DNA of 45,294 nt, taken from Escherichia phage M01. Location of the stretch: the sequence record OR061069; one strand, 5' to 3'. Within the stretch, counting starts at the first letter, position 1. Each line of letters starts with the position of its first letter. Below, piece by piece: positions 2,689 through 44,330 of this stretch. The notes beneath the pieces were generated by a model, which saw only the letters and a program-made list of their open reading frames with translations, searched no databases and was not told the origin of the DNA. The position numbers were made by a program, and so were the translations under genes.

Positions 2689-4159
2689 ATGTTAACTATG
2701 AACGGTCAGAATCAGGGTGTTAAGACAAAACACCGGGAATGGCTGCATCACTTCGATAAATGGCAGAAGGTGCGCCACGCACTGGAGGGCGACCTTATCC
2801 GCTATCTGCGCAACGTCGGGAAGAACGAACCTGACCCCATCTACGCAGCCCAGCGCCAGGAAGAATACGAGAACGGCGCTATCTGCTACAACTTCACTAA
2901 ACGCACCCTGGCCGGGATGGTTGGTAGCGTCATGCGCAAAGACCCCGAACAGATTATCCCGCCTGAGCTTGAGTACCTGTTACGTAACGCCGACGGTTCG
3001 GGTGTAGGGCTGTGGCAGCACGCTCAGGATACTTTGATGGAGATTGACTCAGTAGGTCGTGGCGGGTTGCTGGTGGACGCCCCGGAGACAGCCGCGGCAA
3101 CGGCAGCCGAACAGAATGCGGGACTACTAAACCCGGTCATTGCATTCTATACCACAGAGAACATCATCAACTGGCGACTGACCCGCATCGGTTCAGTGAA
3201 CCGCGTGACGATGGTCGTGCTGCGCGAGGTGTGGGAGTACTCGGAGCCGGGCGCAGAGTTCGAAACCAAGTTCGGTGAGCAGTATCGCGTTCTCGATTTG
3301 ATTGACGGGCGCTACCGCCAGCGCATTTACCGCTTCGATGCCGAAGGTGGTGGCTAATGGTGAAGTAATCGAAATATTCCCGGAACTTGGCGAACAGTTA
3401 CGCGGCAAAATCCCGTTCACGTTCATTGGGGCAAGCAACAACGATGCGACCATCGACGATGCGCCTTTGCTGCCGTTAGCTGAGCTTAATATCGGACATT
3501 TCCGCAACAGCGCGGACAACGAGGAATCCAGCTTCGTTGTAGGGCAGCCCACTCTGTTCATCGCCCCTGGTGAAAACATGAGCATGGAACAGTGGAAAGA
3601 AGCCAACCCTCACGGCGTCCGCACGGGGTCGCGTTCAGGCCACAACATTGGTTACGGCGGCAATGCGTTTCTGGTTCAGGCAGGGGAGAACAACCTCGCC
3701 AAACAGAACATGCTGGATAAAGAGAATCAGGCGATTCAGATTGGTGCGCAGCTTATCACCCCGACGCAGCAAATCACCGCTGAATCGGCCCGTCTGCAAC
3801 GTGGTGCTGATACTTCAGTTATGGCAACAATCGCACGTAACGTAAGCATGGCGTACACTGATGCGCTGCGCTGGGTGGCTGCGATGCTTGGGCTGCGTGA
3901 AGGCACAGAGATTGAGTTCAAGCTGAATATGGAGTTCTTCCTGCAACCGATGACCGCTCAGGACCGTGCTCAGTGGATGGCGGATATTAACGCGGGTCTG
4001 TTACCGGCTACCGCTTATTATGCTGCGTTGCGCAAGGCAGGTGTAACTGACTGGACGGACGAGGACATTCAGAACGCTATTGAGGACGCACCTCTGCCGT
4101 TGGGTGCTGTTACTCAGGTGGCTGGAGAGATTCCGCAGTCGGCGCAACAACAGGAGTAA
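2689..4159 (+). CDS. portal protein, frameshift near 3300-3357
   Basis: about 490 aa across two frames; position after terL. Confidence 0.7.
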
Positions 4160-4165
4160 ATAGAA

Positions 4166-4195
4166 AGGCCCCTTAAGGGGCCTTATCTTTTCTTT
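4166..4195. terminator. bidirectional intrinsic terminator
   Basis: aaggcccc-ttaa-ggggcctt hairpin with flanking T-rich tract; between convergent genes. Confidence 0.6.
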
Positions 4196-4475
4196 ATACA
4201 AATATGAATCCATTGCTGGAAGAGGTGTATCGGGTGGTGCCGTTTTTCGTTTCGGGCCAACAGATATATGAGCGACCATGATACTCTACCCACCAAAGTT
4301 CTACATCGGCATCCCCATTAGGTCGCGTCAACCACCCGTGGTGCAGCCAATACTTGCGCCCTATTTTAAATATGCCTTCTTCGCATGAAGGCCTGCAACA
4401 GGCGACGCACTCTACTTGAACACCATCAACATGCACACATGTCATATGTAAATTACTGTTTGAATATTTAGCCAT
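4194..4475 (-). CDS. Cys-rich hypothetical protein (possible zinc-binding), moron-like
   Basis: 93 aa minus-strand ORF inside plus-strand late operon; RBS aaggaa; TATAAT 4521-4526 on minus strand upstream. Confidence 0.45.
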   Translation of the reverse strand: MAKYSNSNLHMTCVHVDGVQVECVACCRPSCEEGIFKIGRKYWLHHGWLTRPNGDADVELWWVEYHGRSYICWPETKNGTTRYTSSSNGFIFV

Positions 4476-4508
4476 TTCTAAATTCCTTATCTCTCGTTTT
4501 GATGTAAT

Positions 4509-4533
4509 GAATAGTACCCTATTATATTGGTGT
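4509..4533. promoter_or_regulatory. conserved 25-bp element copy A (gaatagtaccctattatattggtgt)
   Basis: near-identical to 6259-6283 and 16027-16051; IR aatag-tacc-ctatt; minus-strand reading gives TATAAT. Confidence 0.55.
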
Positions 4534-4583
4534 CTGCAAATATTATTTTTATGCGTTACACTGTCTATACTACAGGAGGGCTT

Positions 4584-5631
4584 ATGAGCTTACTTACATC
4601 CCTAATCAGCCACCAGATATGGCTACAACGCGCCGCATCCGGTGAAGTGAAAGACCTCGCACCGTTTATTAAGGAGATGCGGGACGAAATCAAACGGCAG
4701 GTGCTGTTATTCGGCGACGACGGGCGAAGCACTGCGCGACTGAATAAACTGTTACGCGACCTCGAAGAAGCACTGACAGGGCTTACAGGTGACTGGCAAA
4801 CAAAGCTGACAGAAGACCTTAAGGAACTGGCGGCGTATGAGGCGGAGTGGAACGTAAAGGCACTGACCGCCAACGTAGACGCGGAGTTTGTTACACCTAC
4901 CGCCGAACAGGTGTGGGCTGCTGCCGAGTTTCAACCGCTCTCATTGAGCGACAAGCCTGTTGATTTCTCTAAGCTGATGACCGGCTGGGGCGAAACAGAA
5001 GTCGAGCGCCTGGTAACCGGCGTTAAGATGGGCTTTGTACAAGGCCAAACCACACGGCAGATTGTTAAGAATGTCGTAGGCGCTGGCGGACTGGCCGACG
5101 TCTCTGAGCGTAACGCCGCTACCGTCATCCGCACCGCGCTGTCCCACGTGTCTAACGAAGCCCGTAACGAGACGTACCGCCAGAACGAAGACATCATCGA
5201 GAAGTACGAGTGGGTGTCGACGCTAGACAGCCGTACCAGTACGATTTGCAGAGCCAGAGACGGAATGACGTGGGAAATCGGTAAAGGGCCGATGCCGCCA
5301 GCCCATCCGAACTGCCGAAGTACGTGCACTGCACCTGTAATCAGTTCAGAGTTCGATTTCCTGGATAAAGGTGCAAAGCGAGCGGCTAAAGGTGCGGACG
5401 GCGGTACTCAGGTAAGCGCAGACACCACCTATTACGAGTTCCTGAAGCAACAACCGTCGTGGTTTCATCGATGAAGCGCTCGGCCCGGTGCGAGGCAAGA
5501 TTTTCCGTAACAGCGGTATATCACCGGAAGAGTTTCGCGTAATATCTGTAGATGGTTTCGGGAATCCGCTGACGCTTAAGCAGATGGCGGAACTCGATAA
5601 ACGTGTTGCTGATTATCTGAAAGGGGAATAA
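4584..5631 (+). CDS. head morphogenesis protein (SPP1 gp7 / Mu F-like), frameshift near 5460-5475
   Basis: RBS aggaggg before ATG 4584; C-terminal part continues in another frame to TAA 5629-5631. Confidence 0.65.
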
Positions 5632-6091
5632 TGATGGGCTTTTCAAAGTAACTGATGTACCGTCACGTCGCGTAGTCCAGTTTGCTCGTGTGTCAGGCTC
5701 CGGTGAGAACGTGGTGTCTATTGGGGATGAAAGTGTACTGGGTACGCCGGTAGATGATATGCCGTTTGCAGATAAAACCGGTATTGCGTTACCCGCGGCG
5801 GGCATGCTTTATGAGATTCCGTATCTGGCGGACGCTGGCGATGTGTATTTCTCTGTGCAACCGAAAGACGCTGAACTGGTTGACGGCAGCGCGACTATCA
5901 CTGTCGAAGTTAAGGCAGGTAAAGCGCCGTATACGCTGACCTGGTACAAAGACGGTAAGGAAGTAGTAAACGCCCCGGAAGAGGCTTTGTCTCTGACGGT
6001 TAACGCGGTGGGTGAATACTTCGTTAAAGTCACCGATGCCGATGGAGTAGAGGCGGTAAGTAAAGCGGCGAAGGTTACGAAGCCAGAATGA
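5631..6091 (+). CDS. Ig-like domain protein (possible capsid decoration); ATG 5631 frame broken at T4 run 5640-5643, alternative GTG start 5690
   Basis: Ig-like motif PYTLTWYKDG; frame 2 open from 5621 with no ATG. Confidence 0.5.
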
Positions 6092-6094
6092 TAA

Positions 6095-6122
6095 AAGGCC
6101 CCACTATGGGGCCTTATTTTTC
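6095..6122. terminator. bidirectional intrinsic terminator
   Basis: aaggcccc-actat-ggggcctt then TTTTT; A-tract upstream. Confidence 0.6.
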
Positions 6123-6258
6123 ATCAAAGTTCACCATTCCCGCTGACTCTGCGTCCTCGACCCGCGCTAACAGCCCACACAAACAATCCTAAATTAACCA
6201 GTAACACAAATGAAATTGCGTACCATCAGTAACTTCACCTCCACTATCACGTTTTACT

Positions 6259-6283
6259 GAATAGTACCCTATTATATTGGTGT
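6259..6283. promoter_or_regulatory. conserved 25-bp element copy B
   Basis: identical 25-mer; minus-strand TATAAT at 6271-6276. Confidence 0.55.
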
Positions 6284-6336
6284 GCGCAAACTATTTGTTT
6301 ACGTATTCCGGTTATTCCACTCGAATTGTAAATGTT

Positions 6337-6385
6337 GGAATAAACTATTCGAATAGTTGACTTTTCACCAAAAATGTGCTAAGCT
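6337..6385 (+). promoter_or_regulatory. sigma70-like promoter with upstream box (TGTTGGAATAA-N2-TATTC; -35 TTGACT 6357-6362; extended -10 TGcTAAGCT 6377-6385)
   Basis: 17-bp spacer; palindrome ctattcgaatag 6345-6356; same box recurs at 7119-7142. Confidence 0.45.
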
Positions 6386-6563
6386 CCACCTGAGCTTGTG
6401 AAGTATGAACAAGCGACCGCGGCGTGGCAGGTAACGGAGCCGGACGTTAAGTCCGAGTGTAGTTACGCTGACGCGTTCGGAAGGGCCATACTCTATTGCT
6501 TGTGTAAAAAGTAACTGGGTTTACTGAGATTACGCCGTTTCTATGTTTAAATGATAAGGACTA

Positions 6564-6590
6564 GCGCCCCGCTTTAAGGCGGGGCTTTAC
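6564..6590 (+). terminator. intrinsic terminator-like hairpin in leader upstream of Rz
   Basis: stem gccccgc/gcggggc, loop tttaag, then tttacttat. Confidence 0.4.
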
Positions 6591-6609
6591 TTATCGAGAA
6601 AGGGGAAAC

Positions 6610-7019
6610 ATGAATCTTAAAGCAACTGTCGTAGCAGGAGCATGTTTCATCATCCTGGCTTACGCACACGGCATCTACCAGTACCGCAGCTGGCTGGAAC
6701 GAAGGCCAGCGCGAATCTCGTTTCGCAGCAACAGCAGAAAGCACAGGCTGAGTTAGCGAAGAAAACACAACGGCAGCAGCAGGACGAATCAAAGGCCGCC
6801 GCCGCTGACAACGAAGGCAAGACGAAATCAGAGGTGATTACCCGTGAAGTCGTTAAGTACATTAAAACGCCTGGTCGCAGCGTGTGCACTTTTGACGATG
6901 CTCGCGTCCTGCTCAAGTCCCGCGCCGTCGCCAACGCCAATTCCATCTCCGGATACGACGATGATGCAGCCACCGTGCAAGCTGGCGCACGCCAAGTAGT
7001 GACGCGGACGAGGACTTAG
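6610..7019 (+). CDS. Rz: i-spanin (Rz-like), frameshift near 6700-6756
   Basis: N-terminal TM segment then Q/A/K-rich periplasmic domain; lipoprotein ORF embedded in +1 frame. Confidence 0.55.
6844..6999 (+). CDS. Rz1: o-spanin (Rz1-like) lipoprotein embedded in +1 frame of Rz
   Basis: GTG start; signal peptide with lipobox LASC; Pro-rich mature part with C-terminal Cys. Confidence 0.6.
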   Translation: MKSLSTLKRLVAACALLTMLASCSSPAPSPTPIPSPDTTMMQPPCKLAHAK

Positions 7020-7092
7020 CTATTGACGTTCAGAACGCCGAATGCGTGCGGCAACTGCGTCTGAAAGTGTTCATGTTGCAGGACTACGTGAG

Positions 7093-7165
7093 GAATATTC
7101 TGGAATAGTTGCCTTGCATGTTGGAATAATTTATTCTTGACATGTAAATCCGGGTGGCCCGGATT
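7093..7165 (+). promoter_or_regulatory. upstream regulatory region of scaffold/capsid operon (second GGAATAA-N2-TATTC box, TTGACA 7137-7142, 8-bp hairpin 7146-7165)
   Basis: box shared with 6337-6362; no clear -10 found. Confidence 0.3.
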
Positions 7166-7190
7166 CCAACGTCCAGGGGACATACTGACT

Positions 7191-7892
7191 ATGAATCGTT
7201 TTTTACGTTATCCGTTCCAGGAAGAAGCTGGAGCAGAAGATAAAGCCGGTGGCGGTGACGCGCCGAAAATGTTCACAGCCGAAGAAGTTCAGGCGCTGAT
7301 TGAGAAAGAAGTTGCCGGGCTTAAGGCCAATCAGGAAGCATTGCTGGCGGAGAAGAAAGAAGCCGCTCGCAAAGCAAAAGAGGCTGAAGAAGAACGGCAG
7401 CGCGCACACCAGGAGGCGTTAAAAGCCGCTGGTAAGATGGACGAGTTTGAAAAGACGATTCGTAGCCAGTATGACCCGGTGTTAGCCGAGAAAGATGGTC
7501 GCATCTCCAAAATGGCAGAGCGCATCCTCGGCAGCGAACGTAAAGCGGTGTTAGGCTCTTTCGCGGGTGACTTCATCACCCCGGAAGCAGTGGACATTCT
7601 TGCGCCGTTCGTCAAGACTGAGTTCGAAGGCGATGATGTGGTTACTAAGTTTGTCGGCGCAGACGGCAACGTAATCACGACTGACCCGGAACAGTTCCGC
7701 AAATACCTGCGCGAACACAAAGCGTTTTCGCATTTGATTAAAGCAAATGCAGCTTCCGGCGGCGGGGCTTCCGGTAGCAAAGGCGGCGGGGCCGCACCAG
7801 CGTTTAAAGACATGAGTGAAGCGGAGCGTTTAGCTCTGTATAAATCGAACCCTGCCGAATTTGAGCGGCAACTTAAAGCCCTGAGGAAATAA
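7191..7892 (+). CDS. scaffolding protein (putative)
   Basis: charged coiled-coil-like sequence immediately before major capsid gene. Confidence 0.55.
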   Translation: MNRFLRYPFQEEAGAEDKAGGGDAPKMFTAEEVQALIEKEVAGLKANQEALLAEKKEAARKAKEAEEERQRAHQEALKAAGKMDEFEKTIRSQYDPVLAEKDGRISKMAERILGSERKAVLGSFAGDFITPEAVDILAPFVKTEFEGDDVVTKFVGADGNVITTDPEQFRKYLREHKAFSHLIKANAASGGGASGSKGGGAAPAFKDMSEAERLALYKSNPAEFERQLKALRK

Positions 7893-7894
7893 TA

Positions 7895-8946
7895 ATGGCA
7901 ATTACCACTATCGGCGATATCGTAACTGGCAACATCCCGGTCCTGGCGTCTTACATGACCGAGGACCCGGTAGAAAAAACCGCGTTCTTCCAGTCTGGTA
8001 TTCTGACCCCGACTCCATACGCTGCCGAGATTGCCCGCGGCTCGTCCAACATCGCTAACATCCCTTTCTGGAAAGCGATTGATACTTCTATTGAGCCTAA
8101 CTACTCGAACGACGTATACCAGGACATCGCAACCCCGCGTAACGTGCAGACCGGCGAGATGATGGCGCGCGTTGCATACCTGAACGAAGGCTTCGGCCAG
8201 GCAGACCTGACTGTAGAACTGACCAGTCAGAATCCGCTGCAATCCGTAGCGTCCCGTCTGGATAACTTCTGGCAGCGCCAGGCGCAACGCCGTCTGATTG
8301 CTACCGCGCTCGGTCTGTACAACGACAACGTAGCCGCTGACCGATGAATACCATACGCAGAACGATATGGTTGTCGACGTGTCCTGCTTCTCTGGGCTTC
8401 GACGCTGGCGCATTCATCGACGCTACCCAGACTATGGGCGATGCGCTGATGGGCAACGGCGGTGAAGTGCTGGGCGCTATCGCGATGCACAGCTTCGTTT
8501 ATGCGCAGGCGCGTAAGCAGCAGCTTATCGACTTCATCAAAGATGCTGACAACGACACCCTGTTCGCCACCTACCAGGGCTACCGCGTGATTGTTGACGA
8601 CAGCATGACCGTAGTTGGCTCCGGCTCGAGCCGTAAGTTCATCTCCATCATCTTCGGCAACGGCGCTATCGGTTACGGTGAAGGTAATCCGTCCAACCCG
8701 CTGGAATACGAGCGCGAAGCATCTCGCGGTAACGGCGGCGGTGTCGAAACCCTGTGGACCCGTAAGACCTGGTTGCTGCACCCACTGGGCTACAGCTTCA
8801 CCAGTGCGGTAATCACCGGCAACGGCACCGAGACTGTAGCCCGCTCTGCTTCCTGGCAGGACCTGGCGAACGCCTCCAACTGGAACCGCGTTGTTGAACG
8901 TAAGCACGTACCGATTGCCTTCCTGGTAACTGGTGTTGGTGCTTAA
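7895..8946 (+). CDS. major capsid protein, frameshift near 8340
   Basis: about 350 aa across two frames; follows scaffold; terminator hairpin after. Confidence 0.65.
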
Positions 8947-8962
8947 GGTTAAGCTTATAATC

Positions 8963-8993
8963 GAGAGGGACTTCGGTCCCTATTTTCATTTAT
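8963..8993 (+). terminator. intrinsic terminator after capsid gene
   Basis: agggac-ttcg-gtccct then T-rich tract. Confidence 0.45.
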
Positions 8994-9008
8994 TAAGAGG
9001 ATTCCTTA

Positions 9009-9351
9009 ATGGCAGACGTATTGAAACGACGCATCACCGGCGTCTCCGCTGACGCCCCGGGTGCTAAGATTGATATGGCGACTATTTCTCCTGCGTCTTT
9101 CTCTACCCCACTTAACGCTACTACCTAGGTTGCCGCCGGACGAGACTATGACCCTGACCGTCGCAGTAACTGGCGGTCTGGAGCCATATTCCTATCAGTG
9201 GTACAAGAACAACAACGCCATCACAGGAGCAAACGCTGCCTCCTATGCTAAAGCGTCGACCACTACCGCCGATTCTGGCACGTATAAAGTGGTTGTTCAC
9301 GATGTGTATGGTAATATTATCTCCAGCAGCACTGTAGCAACTGTGTCTTAA
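9009..9351 (+). CDS. Ig-like domain protein; N-terminal 39-aa ORF (frame 3) joins Ig-domain frame near 9120, alternative ATG 9148
   Basis: motif PYSYQWYKNN paralogous to 5690-6091. Confidence 0.4.
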
Positions 9352-9388
9352 TACAAACGGCCCTTCGGGGCCGTAATAAGGAAAGGTC

Positions 9389-9568
9389 ATGGCAGATAAT
9401 TATGTAATCCGCGAAAAGTACACCCACGTTGATGTTGTTGACGGTCAGGTGATGCCTGTTCGCGGTGTTGTAGAAGCGGATGAACTGGTTGCAACCCAAC
9501 CGGACAACGAAGAAGCGCACAACAACGGCGGTGGTGCTAAGCGTCGTCGCCGTAAGTCAGAGGATTAG
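9389..9568 (+). CDS. hypothetical small basic protein (59 aa)
   Basis: ATG 9389 after hairpin 9359-9376; stop TAG 9566-9568. Confidence 0.3.
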   Translation: MADNYVIREKYTHVDVVDGQVMPVRGVVEADELVATQPDNEEAHNNGGGAKRRRRKSED

Positions 9569-9571
9569 GAC

Positions 9572-9724
9572 ATGAATATCATGCGGCGCTTGCTCTGTAC
9601 CCACAAATACCTAACGGTAAGAGTCGCGTATGGTGACGAGATAATTGGTAGAAATTACAAGCGATACTGCCAAGAGTGCACAAAATGCGGCGCAATCAGA
9701 TACGTGGGTGGTGATAAATGTTAA
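9572..9724 (+). CDS. hypothetical Cys-rich small protein (zinc-ribbon-like, 50 aa)
   Basis: C-x2-H and CxxCxxC spacing; overlaps next gene start. Confidence 0.3.
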   Translation: MNIMRRLLCTHKYLTVRVAYGDEIIGRNYKRYCQECTKCGAIRYVGGDKC

Positions 9725-10227
9725 TTGTAGAAACAGGCCAAATTATAGAGGGGGCCGATTCGTACATCTCATTAGCGGACGCCCGCGCGTTAGCGGCTAA
9801 TTATGGTCTGGAGTTACCCGCCGACGATACTGCCGCAGAAGTAGCCCTGCGCAATGGTGCTACTTATGTCGGGCTTGCAGAGCCGCAGATGTGCGGTCGT
9901 CGTGTATCCGCTGAACAGTCTCTGGCATACCCTCGTACCGGTGTTACGTTAAACGGATTCCCGGTAGCGGATAATGTTATCCCGAAACAGGTGATTCTTG
10001 CGCAGGTAATCGCCTCCGCCACATATGGCGCCGGCACGGAAGTGCGGGCCAACTCTGACGGTCGTTCCGTGCAGACTGAGCGTGTTGAGGGCGCAGTCAC
10101 AGTGACATACTTCAACAACGGCAGCAGTGGCGCTACGACCGCGATTACCGCCGCGGACGACGCCTTACGCCCGTTACTGTGTGGTGGTCTTAACAATGGC
10201 TTCTCATTTAATGTGTACCGGGGTTAA
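9718..10227 (+). CDS. virion structural protein (putative head-tail connector)
   Basis: position in late operon; 169 aa. Confidence 0.4.
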   Translation: MLIVETGQIIEGADSYISLADARALAANYGLELPADDTAAEVALRNGATYVGLAEPQMCGRRVSAEQSLAYPRTGVTLNGFPVADNVIPKQVILAQVIASATYGAGTEVRANSDGRSVQTERVEGAVTVTYFNNGSSGATTAITAADDALRPLLCGGLNNGFSFNVYRG

Positions 10228-26086: not shown

Positions 26087-26600
26087 CTGGTAAATTTCCT
26101 CGCAAGATACGTTATTTCTTCTTCACAAAGTTCATCAAGGTCGTTTGACACAAATCCTCTGGTGAATGTTTTGCTGAACTTTAAGCCAGCTTTATCATTG
26201 TCGCCCGCGCACACCCAGTCATACGGCAAAAGTGACATTTGCTGCCGTAGGTCAGTTGGTATATTTGACCCCAAGTGCGCTTACGGCATTGAACCCGCAA
26301 TTCATCAAAGCAACAGCTTTAAATATGCTTTCGGTAACAAATACGGTCCCGCTTTCGCGGAAGGTATTCCAACCCCCATAAACAAGGTCTTGTTGTTCTG
26401 GTGAAGTACCGCGCGTCTTTAGGATTTTTACAGTTCTTTTCAGCATGTGGCTTGTAATGCTGGTATCCGCGAAGCCTACCATCAAACCCCCACAGGTAAA
26501 ATGTAGCTACTCCAGAGCCTAAGACTACACGTAAACGGTCAGCGTCAAAACCTCGCGACAGCAGATGCACCTTAAGTAGTAACTCCTCGCAATCCATCAT
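26083..26600 (-). CDS. TOPRIM-domain primase-like protein, frameshifted
   Basis: motifs VFVTESIFKA and GDNDKAG across three frames. Confidence 0.45.
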
Positions 26601-28023
26601 TTCTTACCTCGTCTCTTCATGTAATTAAACAATTCTTCCTGCACCGATTTCTTCTCGTCGGTACGCGCAGCGACAACCTCGTCCAGCGTGTCTTTAGCAA
26701 CGATATGATAGAGGAACACCGGTCGCTCGTGACCCGCCTGTTTCTGGCGGACAGGGCCTATGCGTTCGACAACCTGCAAATAGTGCTCAAGGTTCCAGCC
26801 TTGCGAGATGAATGCCAGATGGTGTCCTCCGTCCTGTAAATTCAAACCATGACCGGCTGACGCGGGATGCACGCATAAGATTTCTATTTCACCCGCGGTT
26901 CCACGCCTCCATCTGCTTATTACCCTTCGCGCCTTTGGCAAACGCCTGCGCCTGCGGGAATCGCTTAAGGATGCGCTCCAGTTCGTGCTTGAACTGATAG
27001 GCCACCAGTAACGGTAGCGCCCTGTAACTCCTCAACAATGGACTCGAGCGCATCAAGTTTCGTGTCGTGCACTTTCTCCCATTCTTTGGTTGATTCGCCA
27101 TCTGGCCCCGATACATACACGGCACCGGAGGCAATCTGTAGGCACTTCGACGTCTTCGCCGCAGCGTTAGCCGCTTCAACTTCTCCGCTCTCCAGTTCCG
27201 CGAATAACTTCTCCTCCATATCGATGTACGCCTGACGTGCTTTCTTCGGCAGGTCGATTTCAACCGGCACAATAATCGGCGCTTCACACCCGAACCACTC
27301 GGCGGCGTCAATCGTGAGACTAATGTCCTTCATCTTCTGGTGAATTTCATTATCCGCACCCGGTCGCGCATGATACTCACGCGCCATAGCTGACTTACCT
27401 TTCTGTACCGAGTTAAACCAGCGGTCGGTGAAGGCGGTGTATGAAGACCCGAGGCGCTCACCAGCGTCGATAAACCAGTTCTGGCCCCACAAGTCTTTGA
27501 GGCCGTTTGGCGACGGTGTACCTGTCAGGTTGATAAAACGTTTAACCTTACCGAACGCAACTTTACTAAGCGCCTTCGCTCTCTTACTGCCACCTGAACG
27601 GCTGCGGAATGATTTCAGCTTCGTGCTCTCGTCTGCAACGATAACAGTAAATGGCCAGTCGTCTTTGCCGTAGTAGTCAATCAGCCACTCAATAACTTCG
27701 TAGTTTGTGCAAACCACGTTAGCATCAGACTCCAGCGCCGCGATGCGGCGCTTCTCTGAACCGGTGGCATCGACGACACGCAGACAGGGAAGTTCCACTT
27801 CGTCTTGCTCCGCGGGCCACGTACCGGACGCAACCCGCAGCGGGGCGAGGATTAACACGCGGTCCTCTTCAGTAAGCTGCCCGTTGCGGAACAGTCGGTT
27901 TAACACCCACATTGTCGACGAGGTCTTGCCGCCGCCCATACCGCACCAGATATTGCAACGTGGGTGCTGTAGCATAAACGACGTCATTATTTTCTGATAT
28001 TCCCTGCGCCTAAACTTACTCAT
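26597..28023 (-). CDS. SNF2-family DNA helicase, frameshifts near 26900-26965
   Basis: Walker A GMGGGKT; DEAD-box-like VIVADES; helicase C-terminal motifs in adjacent frame. Confidence 0.7.
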
Positions 28024-32654: not shown

Positions 32655-33898
32655 TCCAAATCCTCCTCTGTTACCTGATTCCACTCAGGACGTTTGTCGT
32701 CCGCCGTTGCGACGCATGGCGCGCCTGGTTTACGGGTAATGAAGTCTTTCAGTTCTTCTTCCGGTATTACTTTAACCGCTTCGGTCGGCGTCATGAGCAC
32801 TTCTTTGGTCAGCTTGCCGCCGTATTTCTCGGCCACTTTCTCTGCGTCTTTCCACGCGCGATTACCCGGCCGACCCTCAACCAGCTTGTACCCCGGTACT
32901 TTCTTGCCAGAATGCAACGCGGCGGCCATAGCTTTCTCGACCTTGTCGATGTGCTGGCGCAACAACGGCAACTTCTCATACTCAGCCACGAGTTGCTCCG
33001 GTGTAAGTTCCAGTGCGAAATCGTCCTCCAGTTCTTCCGCCAGCGCCGCGTTAACCGTCTTTGTACGCGCTGCGCACTGTTCTGAGAACCGACACCACTG
33101 ACAGCCGTCGACAGACGGCCTGAAGTCCGACGCTTTCAGGTTCTTCTTGCCGCGGAAATACGCATCTAAGCGCTAACAGTGCACGTTTCTGCGCGAACTT
33201 AGCGAACAGTTCCAGACCTTCAACCGAGATGTCCCACTCCGACGCACCGCCAGCGTACGGCTGGAAGATGACCAGACGGACAACTGTGATGTTATAACGT
33301 CTCTTGAGTCGGCGATAAACACCGAGAGCGTAAAGCATAAGCTGCTTGTTTTCTTTCGCTTCGACACGATGCCGTCCTGTTTTCAGGTCGCCGATAATGA
33401 GCATGTGATCGTCGGTGTTCGCCAGCTCCTGAACGGCAACAAGGTCAGCGGTTCCGAACGTCTCGACACCTTCATAGCCCAGGATGCAATACCTCAGTAA
33501 GATTGACTCGCATTTCCAGCTTGGCGTAAGTCGCTACGTCGATAATCGCTTTGCAGTAGTCTGTGTACTTGCGCACCTGCTCAATCATATCCGCCGTAAT
33601 CAGTACCGCGCCCTTCATCGGGCTGATTAGCGCCTTAATCTGGCCTTTACCTTCATCAAGCACATAAGCACCGACTTCGCGCTCTAACGGCAGCGCAGTA
33701 CCGCGTGATATAGTGCGTTGAGATGTACCTCAGCTATTGTATGCATAGCTGTGCCTAACACGGCAGCTTTGCCGGACGTGTTAGGAATATCTTTTTCACA
33801 GGCCAGTGATGCACTGCACAGCTCAGCCACTTTTTAGCACCTGACGGCGATAGTAATGCGTGCACATCGTTATTGCCGCCGCGTTCTTTTAGAATCAT
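32651..33898 (-). CDS. PD-(D/E)xK exonuclease (Cas4/RecB-like) with C-terminal extension, multiple frameshifts
   Basis: motifs LSPSGAKKW, DLKTGR, Cys cluster CQWCRFSEQC across frames. Confidence 0.55.
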
Positions 33899-35879: not shown

Positions 35880-38122
35880 CTATTCCAAATCCTCCTCTGT
35901 AACCACCAGCATTTCATTTGGTTCGTATATTGTCTTCGGTCTTAATCTGTCACCCATCTTTTCCGGTATCCGGTATGTGCCTGGCATAACTTCACCGTTA
36001 ACATCGCACCCGAGCATCAACTCCCCGTCTTTCAGCATCTTCTCGAGATGGTGGTTGGTGATGGCGTGGTCGCCCGAGTTCGCTACTATCTGCCGTTGGG
36101 TAAAACCTCGTCCGGTGTCGTTAGACTGTTGCAGGTCTTCCAGCGCGGCGAGTATGGATTCCTTACGTCCTCCATCCTTCCCACGTTTTACGGCATTCTT
36201 TACGTTTTCTTTACCTTCCTTTGTTATGCCTTCTTCCCGCTCTTTCTCCTCGTCAGTTTTGAACGGTTCGAAGCCCCACGGCATCAGCACAAGCGCCTTG
36301 TGAGGCTCAGGCAGGTCGAGGTTTACGATTGTGCCATATTCCTCGGTGCTACCCAGGAACTCAACAGCACGGTATTCTTTCGGCGGCGGGGCTTCACGGA
36401 ACTGTACGGACTCCAGAACCATACCGACAGTTTTCTGTTGAGGCCCGTGCTTAAATTTAGAGTGGTATACATTTATTTGACGGTCGGTTGCACGTTCGAT
36501 TGTCAGTTCCACGTCGACACCTGCATACAGTGCCCCGCTGCCACGGGCTTTCTTTCCCCCTTCGGCGTATGATGGACAACACCTACCGCGGCTTTAGTCG
36601 CGTCGCGTACTTCTTTCAGGATGGCGATAACTTTACCCATGCCGATTGCCGTTGATGAACTGTTCTCGTCAAACTTATCAATCGTCAGGGCCAGCGTCTG
36701 GTTGAGGGTGTCGAACGCGACCATACCGATTGGCTCGTCGCCAGCAGTTTCGCGCATTAACTTAATCAGGTTTTTCAGTTTGCGCGAGACTTCGCCCATA
36801 TCAATGACATGTATGTAATCTTTACCTTCCTCGCCGTATTTAGCCGCGAGCGCGTCAATACGTGTGCGTGTAGCAGCGCCACCCTCACCGTCGATATAGA
36901 AGTGATGACAACGCTGGGTATCAGCCCCCGCAAACCGGTATCCGGCGGCGCTGAGATACATCATCCCCAGAGTATAAAACGATTTGTACGTGCCAGATTC
37001 CCCGACAATATCCCATATGCAATCCGACGGCATGTACCCTTCAACGACGAAATCAGCCTTTACCGGTTCTGGTAACTCGTCCTCCTCTGAGTCCTCGTCG
37101 TCTTCCAGGTCGTCGAGGCTGCATGAAACGGATTCACGCACACCCCAGCCGATTGCCTCAGCGACTTCACTGAACGGTAGCCCGGTCGCATCACACGCAT
37201 ACTTCCACACCTCTTTCGGTGACATGCCTTCGGTCGCCGTAATGTCGGTGTCGTGAATCATTGTTACGTTAGGCGCTTCGTACCCTTCACGCGGGAAACA
37301 CAGCAGGAAGTCGTCCGGGCGCGGCGTCGGGTCGCTGTAGTTTTCTGCGTGTTCTGGCGTAGCTGGCATCTTTAGGCCACGCGGCGTCATGATGCCACCG
37401 TACTCGAACGCCAGTGCCTCAAACGCATCTGTAAACGCGGTGCGCAGTTCTTCCGGTATCTGGTAGTCAGATGCGCTGCTGATGTCAACGGCTGGGACGC
37501 CTTCCAGTAACTCATCAGGGTCAATCAGGTCGTTGCGGCGCGACCAGATAACAGTAGAGCCAACTGGCGGCAGGTACATCGGCTGCGACAGAGTGAACCC
37601 GCTGCGGTCCGCGCCCATGCCTTTGAAGAAGTGCTCCAGTAATCCATGGCGAACACGGATGATGTCGCCACCTTCAACCGGGCGGGCCAGCGGCATGACG
37701 ACGCGAAAGCGCGGCGACTCGTCGGTATGTGATGCCGTGGTGTAGAGACACATCGCCTGGCGGCTGCGCTTAACCAGGCGCACCGCTTCCTGATACTCTT
37801 CCGGTGTTGCGCTGTCGAAGTCCAGGTACGCCAGCGAAGATTTGCTTACAGACGCATCACAGCGATAGAAGAAGCCTTTACGCGCTTGCTTAAAGTCGCC
37901 TGTTTCCGGGTCTTTTACGGTGCTGTGTGTGGAGTCGCACGCGGCGGTGATATAACCGGGTGCGGTCTTCGGGTTAATTCCGTCACGGACAGCATCAAGC
38001 GGCTGGATTAAATCTTTCAGGTCGCCCAGCGTTGCCGTGTGTGTGGTTCTGACGTTTATATCCTTTTTCTCCGCCCGCGCGTTGCGACGAGACCACGAGT
38101 AGGATAAAATTACATCGGACAT
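35880..38122 (-). CDS. primase-polymerase / RecA-fold helicase fusion, frameshift near 36510
   Basis: Walker A GESGTYKS, Walker B MVAFDTL, HHTPK motif; N-terminal AEP-like AYLDFD. Confidence 0.7.
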
Positions 38123-41954: not shown

Positions 41955-42471
41955 TTGTGGTACAGAGATATTCGTAAGTATGGGTCTGATGAAGCATGGT
42001 CATTGACCGCCACGGGAAGTGGGTTAAGTTTGAGGACTACCAGTAAGCTTGACCTGAAGCTGTACGCGAAGCTGGAGCGCAAGCTGCTGAACTACAAAGA
42101 CCAGTATCGCACGCGCCTTATGTCGAAAGTTGCGCGAAGAAATGGGTCAGTTACGACATGTGTCAGGGATGGAGTGATGTCTCTCGCAACTGACATCCTG
42201 AAACGAAGCGGCCTTGCGCCGCTGTCGCCGAGAGCAAACACCCGAATATACAAGCGCTGCCGTAATGCGCTGTACCATGAGATACAGGCACAGGCGCAAA
42301 GCTGTCCGCGCCTGCGGATTCCAGAACGGGAAGGCCGTGAATCTCGGTGAGTTTAAAACACAGGAACGCGCAGCTATCGCTAATCGGCTATTTAATTACT
42401 GGAAATCGCTGGGGTACGATGATATTCCAACGAAACCGCAGAGACGACAATACATCTGGAGACACAAATGA
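41955..42471 (+). CDS. putative endonuclease with AP2-like C-terminal domain, frameshifted
   Basis: GKAVNLGEFKTQERAAIA resembles AP2 domain of HNH endonucleases. Confidence 0.35.
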
Positions 42472-42968: not shown

Positions 42969-43278
42969 TTGGATAAATTTACTGAAACAGTGACGGGGTG
43001 GCTTCTGGCTGCCGCACTAGCTGGTGGGGTAATCGGACTAAGACAACATAAGTCCATTATTTCTGGCCCTATCGATGGCTTCTGCTTTATTGCAACCGGC
43101 TTCACCTGCGCAGTATTTGGCGCGCCTCTCGCAGCTCAATGGTTTGGAATCACGGGCGACCGTGAAATCGCCGGGCCTGGGCTTCATTATCGCTATTCTC
43201 TGGATGCCTATCTATTCCCGCCTCTCTGGCATCGTCGCCGGAGAATACATCGCACGTCGAGGAGGCCCGGATGAATGA
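42969..43278 (+). CDS. holin (three TM segments), TTG start, frameshift near 43170
   Basis: RBS ggagga; hydrophobic segments in two frames; directly upstream of endolysin. Confidence 0.5.
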
Positions 43279-43543
43279 GCTATTCTGGTTCGGCGGTATG
43301 CTGGCAATCGGAGGCACATCGCTGTTTAATGTGTATCACCCCAGCGTGAACGACGGGCTGTTTGGTCGGGTGCTCTATATCCTGACCGCTATCGTCTGCG
43401 CCGCCGGATGTATCCACCTGTTACAGGGCAGCATGTCACCAACGTTGCCGGAGACATTAATCACATTAGTTGCGCTGCGTCAGATTCGTCAGGCGTGGCT
43501 GTCATACGGAGGATATAAGCGTGTCTCGAAACATTTCAGATAA
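43271..43543 (+). CDS. membrane protein (second holin / antiholin candidate)
   Basis: two hydrophobic segments. Confidence 0.4.
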   Translation: MNELFWFGGMLAIGGTSLFNVYHPSVNDGLFGRVLYILTAIVCAAGCIHLLQGSMSPTLPETLITLVALRQIRQAWLSYGGYKRVSKHFR

Positions 43544-44009
43544 CGGACTGCATTTCACCGCCGCGTTTGAGGGATTTCCGTGGAACTGCGTATCGTGCTA
43601 CGCCTGAACGAGAAGTACCTGACTATAGGCTACGGTCACTACGGACCAGACGTAACACCAGGTAAGACCATCACACCAGGACAGGGCTTGCTGTTACTGA
43701 ATCGCGATATGGCTAAGGCTGTAGCTGCTGTTGACGCAGCAGCACACCATTCACTGACACAGGCACAGTTCGATGCGGTGTGTGACCTGGTGTATAACGC
43801 CGGTGCTGGCGTGATTGCCGTCTACTACGGGCACAGGCAAGGCACTGCGCTCAGGAGATATTGCAACACTGCGTGCCAAGCTGGCGCTGTTCATCAACCA
43901 GAACGGCAAGCCGTTACTCGGCCTGCGTCGCCGTACAGCCGGACGTCTGGCGCTGTTCGACGGTAAACCGTGGCAAGAGGCTGAGGCGATTGGGAGGGCT
44001 GTTAAATGA
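43521..44009 (+). CDS. endolysin (GH24 lysozyme-like), frameshifts near 43570 and 43830
   Basis: LTIGYGHYG and DAVCDLVYNAGAG motifs across frames. Confidence 0.65.
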
Positions 44010-44258: not shown

Positions 44259-44330
44259 CCAATTGACACCTAAGACTAATCCGACGATACTTAAATCACC
44301 TCCTGTTCCATCCCTCTGCTATCCAGTTTA

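Follow-up and report, generated by a model that had tools for sequence, protein, structure and literature searches.

Positions 6610-7108 of the Escherichia phage M01 sequence (OR061069), which we analyzed over its full 45,294 nt (hereafter, the window), carry two overlapping genes that are both interrupted in the record as deposited. The first gene, which we identify below as that of an inner-membrane spanin subunit (i-spanin), is split between an open reading frame (ORF) at 6610-6756 (48 aa, frame 1), which includes a membrane segment and encodes MNLKATVVAGACFIILAYAHGIYQYRSWLE... followed by nonsense, and a second ORF at 6642-7019 (125 aa, frame 3), which holds the Gln/Ala/Lys-rich part. The first-pass annotation had described 6610-7019 as one ORF with a transmembrane segment and a coiled coil; it consists instead of these two. 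The second gene, that of the outer-membrane subunit (o-spanin), appears as a 51-aa ORF at 6844-6999 (frame 1), with a GTG start codon, a Shine-Dalgarno sequence (GAGGTG) at 6831-6836, and a product of MKSLSTLKRLVAACALLTMLASC followed directly by SSPAPSPTPIPSP..., which is Pro-rich after the lipobox Cys. In the raw sequence, this ORF ends within the 6642-7019 ORF. The C-terminal 38 amino acids of the o-spanin continue in frame 2, at 6992-7105, and by tblastn they are 100% identical to those of phage K1ind1.

We aligned the region with K1ind1 alone at first, then with a set of six Kagunaviruses (K1ind1, CR01, UTEC10, fEg-Eco06, Golestan, and Bas76). Three single bases, T6691, C6710, and A6989, are extra in the window and absent from all six relatives. 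The 1-nt insertions at 6691 and 6710 break the i-spanin frame, while the insertion at 6989 truncates the o-spanin. Removal of T6691, C6710, and A6989 gives a 128-aa i-spanin (6610-6999, plus strand, stop codon TAG at 6997-6999), and removal of A6989 gives an 87-aa o-spanin (6844-7108, plus strand, stop codon TAG at 7106-7108); after correction, the spanin ORFs are intact and of equal length in all seven sequences. The o-spanin gene starts 232 nt into the corrected i-spanin gene, which places it in the +1 frame, overlaps it by 155 nt, and extends 109 nt past the i-spanin stop codon. The embedded arrangement, which had been taken for the classic Rz/Rz1 layout, is thus a product of the insertion at 6989, and the true layout of the family is overlapped.

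The corrected i-spanin has an N-terminal transmembrane segment, predicted by hydropathy, at residues ~5-22 (6622-6675, plus strand; ATVVAGACFIILAYAHGI). In a Kyte-Doolittle analysis with a 15-residue window, hydropathy reached its maximum of 2.21 at residues 5-19, and there were no other hydrophobic segments in the protein. The N-terminal hydrophobic segment is kept in all seven Kagunavirus sequences, and a single membrane segment at this end fits a predicted type II topology in which the remainder of the protein, including Cys92, would be periplasmic. In a single-sequence AlphaFold model, the periplasmic part (6642-7016) is helical, although at low confidence (mean pLDDT 53), with helices at residues 24-74, 84-98, and 108-124 of the modelled fragment. 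For i-spanins of the Jersey family, two helices and a beta-containing linker have been predicted (Kongari 2018, PMC6139136).

The N-terminus of the o-spanin is arranged as a lipoprotein signal: a basic stretch (MKSLSTLKR), then a hydrophobic stretch, and then LAS followed by Cys. The lipobox, L-A-S-C, lies at 6901-6912 (plus strand; residues 20-23), and Cys23 is the predicted lipidated residue. Because the residue at +2 is Ser and not Asp, the Asp+2 retention rule for E. coli lipoproteins implies sorting to the outer membrane. Two further cysteines, Cys45 and Cys67, are predicted to be periplasmic. A window-wide lipobox scan yielded 6844-6999 as the sole convincing ORF with a lipoprotein signal. 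The earlier description of this ORF as a Pro-rich lipoprotein in the +1 frame with an LASC lipobox was therefore sound, and the lipobox is kept in the corrected 87-aa product.

Among the seven sequences, the overlap region corresponding to 6895-6915 occurs in two variants, one with TMLASC in the o-spanin and DDARVLL in the i-spanin, the other with TLSAC and DPERVQL, respectively. The lipobox Cys shifts by one residue between the variants, and the lipobox (LASC or LSAC) and the lengths of both proteins are kept. This conservation of the lipobox and total length in both variants suggests, at the level of sequence, that selection acts on both overlapping frames. The start of the o-spanin is called differently among records. 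An 87-aa protein with a GTG start is used in RefSeq K1ind1 and GenBank Jersey; in several related records the o-spanin is only 47-48 aa, from an internal Met (MMQPPCK...) that leaves out the signal peptide and lipobox. The 47-position profile phrog_5672 seems to have been built from such shortened calls.

In PHROG profile searches, the corrected i-spanin had a full-length match to phrog_2536 (Rz-like spanin; E=1.3e-54), and the corrected o-spanin matched phrog_1267 (Rz-like spanin) with E=9.5e-19 as well as phrog_5672. The i-spanin shares 82 of 128 residues (64%) with Jersey gp09, covering 128/128 aa (E=6e-58), and the o-spanin shares 56 of 88 (64%) with Jersey gp10, end to end (E=2e-35). The Jersey i-spanin and Jersey o-spanin families have 27 members of the overlapped class, including those of phages Jersey, SETP3, K1G, K1H, and K1ind1-3 (Kongari 2018, PMC6139136). 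Their genes overlap by 155 bp, and Cys45 and Cys67 of the o-spanin are constant (Kongari 2018, PMC6139136); the overlap and both cysteines in the corrected genes agree with this description. By tblastn, the o-spanin has matches in 664 phage records, and by megablast the region 6000-7600 matches 361 phage records, nearly all of them Escherichia and Salmonella phages of the Guernseyvirinae (Kagunavirus, Jerseyvirus). We are confident that 6610-7108 encodes the two-component spanin of a Kagunavirus (Guernseyvirinae), that its subunits belong to the i-spanin and o-spanin families published under the name Jersey, and that the genes have the overlapped architecture.

Searches outside these families gave no significant match. 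In Pfam, the Rz and Rz1 models were absent for the corrected proteins even at E<=1, the best weak match being DUF2514 (14.5 bits against a cut-off of 26). In NCBIfam, NF038368 (P2_Rz1) was sub-threshold (15.2 bits against a cut-off of 27, E=0.018), and a PDB sequence search with the corrected proteins returned nothing significant to lambda Rz/Rz1 or to P2 LysB/LysC. Because spanin families are very diverse, these negative results neither support nor contradict the spanin assignment. They do mean that the label Rz/Rz1, as applied by the first-pass annotation, holds as a functional analogy only: the pair is a two-component i-/o-spanin by its PHROG matches and its homology to Jersey, and it does not belong to the lambda Rz and Rz1 sequence families.

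Gene breaks of the kind seen in the spanin genes are found throughout the window. By tblastn, 12 of 28 K1ind1 proteins map to it across at least two reading frames. TerL is spread over three frames, the portal protein over two, the head morphogenesis protein over two, the major capsid protein over three, the helicase over three, the exonuclease over three (in five pieces), the primase over two, the holin over two, and the endolysin over three (in four pieces), and both spanins are split. Examples of such stretches are 1424-2673, 2689-4156, 7895-8943, 26600-28023, 32819-33898, 35883-38122, and 43521-44009. No viable phage could have all of these genes broken, which makes assembly errors the best explanation for the indels; judged by comparison with relatives, the three insertions in the spanin genes are most likely sequencing or assembly errors as well. 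Programmed frameshifting was considered for the split i-spanin and rejected, since no relative has the insertions and comparable breaks are found genome-wide.

If the insertions were genuine, M01 would naturally lack a functional spanin, or would have a real 51-aa embedded o-spanin, the full-length proteins being dispensable in laboratory plating. The three bases are present in the deposited record and lie outside homopolymer runs. In addition, lambda Rz/Rz1 mutants still form plaques, their lysis defect appearing mainly when divalent cations stabilize the outer membrane. Nevertheless, equivalent frameshifts interrupt the indispensable TerL, portal, major capsid, primase, and helicase genes, none of the six relatives is disrupted at any of the three sites, and a 51-aa product would be without the most conserved part of the o-spanin, the C-terminus that matches K1ind1 perfectly in frame 2. 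We regard genuine insertions as very unlikely, and we refer to the corrected genes throughout.

The top match in the megablast of 6000-7600 is PQ474795.1 (Escherichia phage vB_Eco_AMO_3701M, a Kagunavirus), which is base-identical to the window over 6610-7019. Over 3508-10097, the two sequences differ by 443 substitutions and no indels, and none of the substitutions falls in 6605-7115. Many of the 443 are spaced at multiples of three, and within annotated CDSs they look mostly synonymous. PQ474795.1 annotates 103 features, compared with 51 in K1ind1, and its major capsid protein is given as two CDSs. Neither spanin is annotated in that record; a minus-strand, 72-aa "hypothetical protein" at 6574-6792 is called over the start of the i-spanin, and this antisense gene call is almost certainly spurious.

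The spanin pair is among head genes, where the first-pass annotation had placed it: the gene for a Hoc-like decoration protein is on one side and the scaffolding gene on the other, and the pair is encoded on the strand that also carries the packaging and head genes. The holin and endolysin genes, correctly located before at 42969-44009, comprise three genes on the plus strand: a frameshifted holin (phrog_2359, 42969-43275), an intact second holin or antiholin (phrog_2508, 43271-43543), and an endolysin (phrog_7, 43521-44009), which is split over three forward frames in four matched pieces. The endolysin is given as a lysozyme type in the Golestan paper. That no spanin follows the endolysin was borne out: the ORFs downstream of it matched only PHROGs of unknown function or had no match, and none of them carried a lipoprotein signal or was spanin-like. 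There was likewise no candidate for a unimolecular spanin of the T1 gp11 type downstream of the endolysin or in any other part of the window, and K1ind1 and Jersey annotate none at that place.

K1ind1 (RefSeq) and Jersey have a common gene order: holin, holin, endolysin, small ORFs, TerS, TerL, portal, head morphogenesis, Hoc-like, i-/o-spanin, scaffold, and major capsid protein. K1ind1, which is deposited as circular, aligns unbroken across the junction between the end and the start of the window, and a relative packages its DNA by a headful mechanism. Taken together, the colinearity across the junction and the headful packaging of the relative indicate that the point at which the map was cut is arbitrary. 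The ~36 kb previously given as the distance between the spanins and the holin and endolysin is an effect of this cut; on the circular map the gap from endolysin to spanins is ~7.9 kb (45294-44009+6610), with the spanins downstream on the same strand. The split from the holin-endolysin genes is real, but it is not unusual in this subfamily, contrary to what had been proposed: it is seen in the order of K1ind1 and Jersey, and several hundred phage records have matches to the region. In the literature, the paper on phage Schulenberg states explicitly that the spanins are separate from the holin and endolysin, and the Golestan paper gives the spanins as ORF7/8 and the holins and endolysin as ORF66-68.

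Several structures flank the pair. A strong, GC-rich hairpin at 6566-6585 (plus strand), followed by the T-rich stretch TTTACTTAT, precedes the i-spanin ATG by 25 nt. In all of the relatives that were examined, the stem is conserved. The hairpin looks like a terminator, or it could be a structure of the 5'-UTR. Farther upstream, just after the stop codon of the Hoc-like gene, a hairpin at 6095-6115 matches a terminator on both strands and has a folding z-score of -4.25. The stretch between the two hairpins (6116-6565) varies among relatives; many database matches align in two pieces, and Golestan and fEg-Eco06 have minus-strand ORFs there, so that it looks like a hotspot for inserted genes. 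A small conserved ORF is present at 6398-6514.

On the other side of the pair, the spacer from the o-spanin stop codon to the scaffold ATG at 7191 (7109-7190) is near-invariant in the seven phages. Position 7156 alone varies, and the fold comprises two or three hairpins (folding z-score -2.4). The start of the scaffold gene also differs between records, being either the TTG at 7137 (251 aa, as in K1ind1) or the ATG at 7191 (233 aa).

The first-pass annotation had put the spanins under a late promoter region. This remains unsubstantiated, given that a scan of 5600-7400 for sigma-70-type promoters found none. A promoter-like site is present after the endolysin, at 44263-44291 (TTGACA, 17 nt, GATACT; 10/12 matches), and at the equivalent place in phage Jersey there is an annotated promoter (42343-42371). 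Because of this site and its annotated counterpart in Jersey, the packaging, head, and spanin genes may form a transcription unit apart from that of the holins and endolysin. The structures that bracket the pair (the hairpin at 6566-6585 and the spacer at 7109-7190) could uncouple the dosage or timing of the spanins from those of the holin and endolysin, perhaps by attenuated read-through. Such a deliberate regulatory design behind the placement in the head block, in place of a historical accident, we consider most improbable, and likewise the possibility that the insertions are real and the phage is naturally spanin-null.

By analogy with lambda Rz/Rz1, we infer how the two proteins would be placed in the membranes, that they would form a complex, and that they would act by fusion. 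The N-terminal segment of the 128-aa i-spanin would hold the protein in the inner membrane, with a mostly helical domain extending into the periplasm. The 87-aa o-spanin would be processed at its lipobox, lipidated on Cys23, and, given the Ser at +2, sorted to the outer membrane. The C-terminal regions of the two proteins would bind each other across the periplasm. Once the holin and endolysin had destroyed the peptidoglycan, the spanin complex would fuse the inner and outer membranes, completing lysis.

A quite different view is that the two ORFs do not encode lysis proteins at all, but small membrane proteins or accessory proteins of head assembly in which a membrane segment and a lipobox occur by chance. 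The position of the genes between those for decoration and scaffolding would suit such a role, as would the lack of a Pfam match to Rz or Rz1. In addition, our search of the literature on Jersey-family spanins found no direct functional test of the family, whose assigned function rests on homology-free feature logic and on curated bioinformatic classification. Set against this is the co-occurrence of a type II membrane segment, an overlapping lipoprotein gene in the +1 frame, a signal for outer-membrane sorting, periplasmic cysteines, and conserved C-termini. Furthermore, the genome of this phage, which lyses a Gram-negative host, offers no other spanin candidates, and specialists in spanins have curated the pair as a spanin family (Kongari 2018, PMC6139136). 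Chance membrane and lipoprotein features in non-lysis proteins are therefore, in our judgment, barely credible, and we retain the assignment of the pair as a two-component spanin.

As a spanin pair, the genes are ordinary: they are already catalogued, and they occupy the standard genomic position for the subfamily. The result carries little biological weight, because for this subfamily the catalogue already includes such a pair, the overlapped layout of its genes, and their distance from the holin and endolysin genes. Its value lies in curation. PQ474795.1 is rich in indels and leaves the spanins unannotated, with a spurious antisense ORF in their stead, and in several related records the o-spanins are mis-started. 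It also offers a caution, namely that an error of a single base can flip the call between an embedded and an overlapped architecture.

The pair can be compared with several known systems. By prediction, its functional class and logic are those of lambda Rz/Rz1: an inner-membrane protein with a periplasmic domain, possibly helical in our case, and a lipoprotein of the outer membrane whose +1-frame gene lies within or overlaps the same DNA. Both systems have periplasmic cysteines. Homology to the lambda proteins is undetectable at the sequence level with Pfam. In addition, lambda Rz1 is fully embedded, whereas the o-spanin gene here runs 109 nt beyond the i-spanin stop codon, and in lambda the spanin genes come immediately after S and R, within a single lysis cassette, whereas the pair here is ~7.9 kb away among head genes. 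The unimolecular spanin gp11 of phage T1 also acts at the stage of lysis in which the outer membrane is disrupted; an ORF of this kind is absent from the window.

Spanin genes that lie away from the holin and endolysin are found in other phages. The T7 spanin genes, gp18.5/18.7, are not adjacent to its holin and endolysin genes. T4 pseT.3/pseT.2 provide a further precedent, the lysis genes being unclustered in T4-like genomes (Kongari 2018, PMC6139136). The T4 and T7 spanins belong to sequence families and genome types that are unrelated to those of the pair described here, and the T4 pair has the separated architecture.

The closest counterparts are Jersey gp09/gp10 and K1ind1 gp06/gp07. As in the corrected genes, these pairs consist of 128 and 87 aa, overlap by 155 nt in the +1 frame, and have Cys45 and Cys67 in the o-spanin. 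Identity is 64% to the Jersey proteins and 85-100% per matched segment to those of K1ind1. The sole difference from either is the set of three 1-nt insertions in the M01 sequence, which interrupt the i-spanin frame and shorten the o-spanin. In Jersey and K1ind1, as in M01, the pair is found between the Hoc-like and scaffolding genes, apart from the holin-holin-endolysin cluster.
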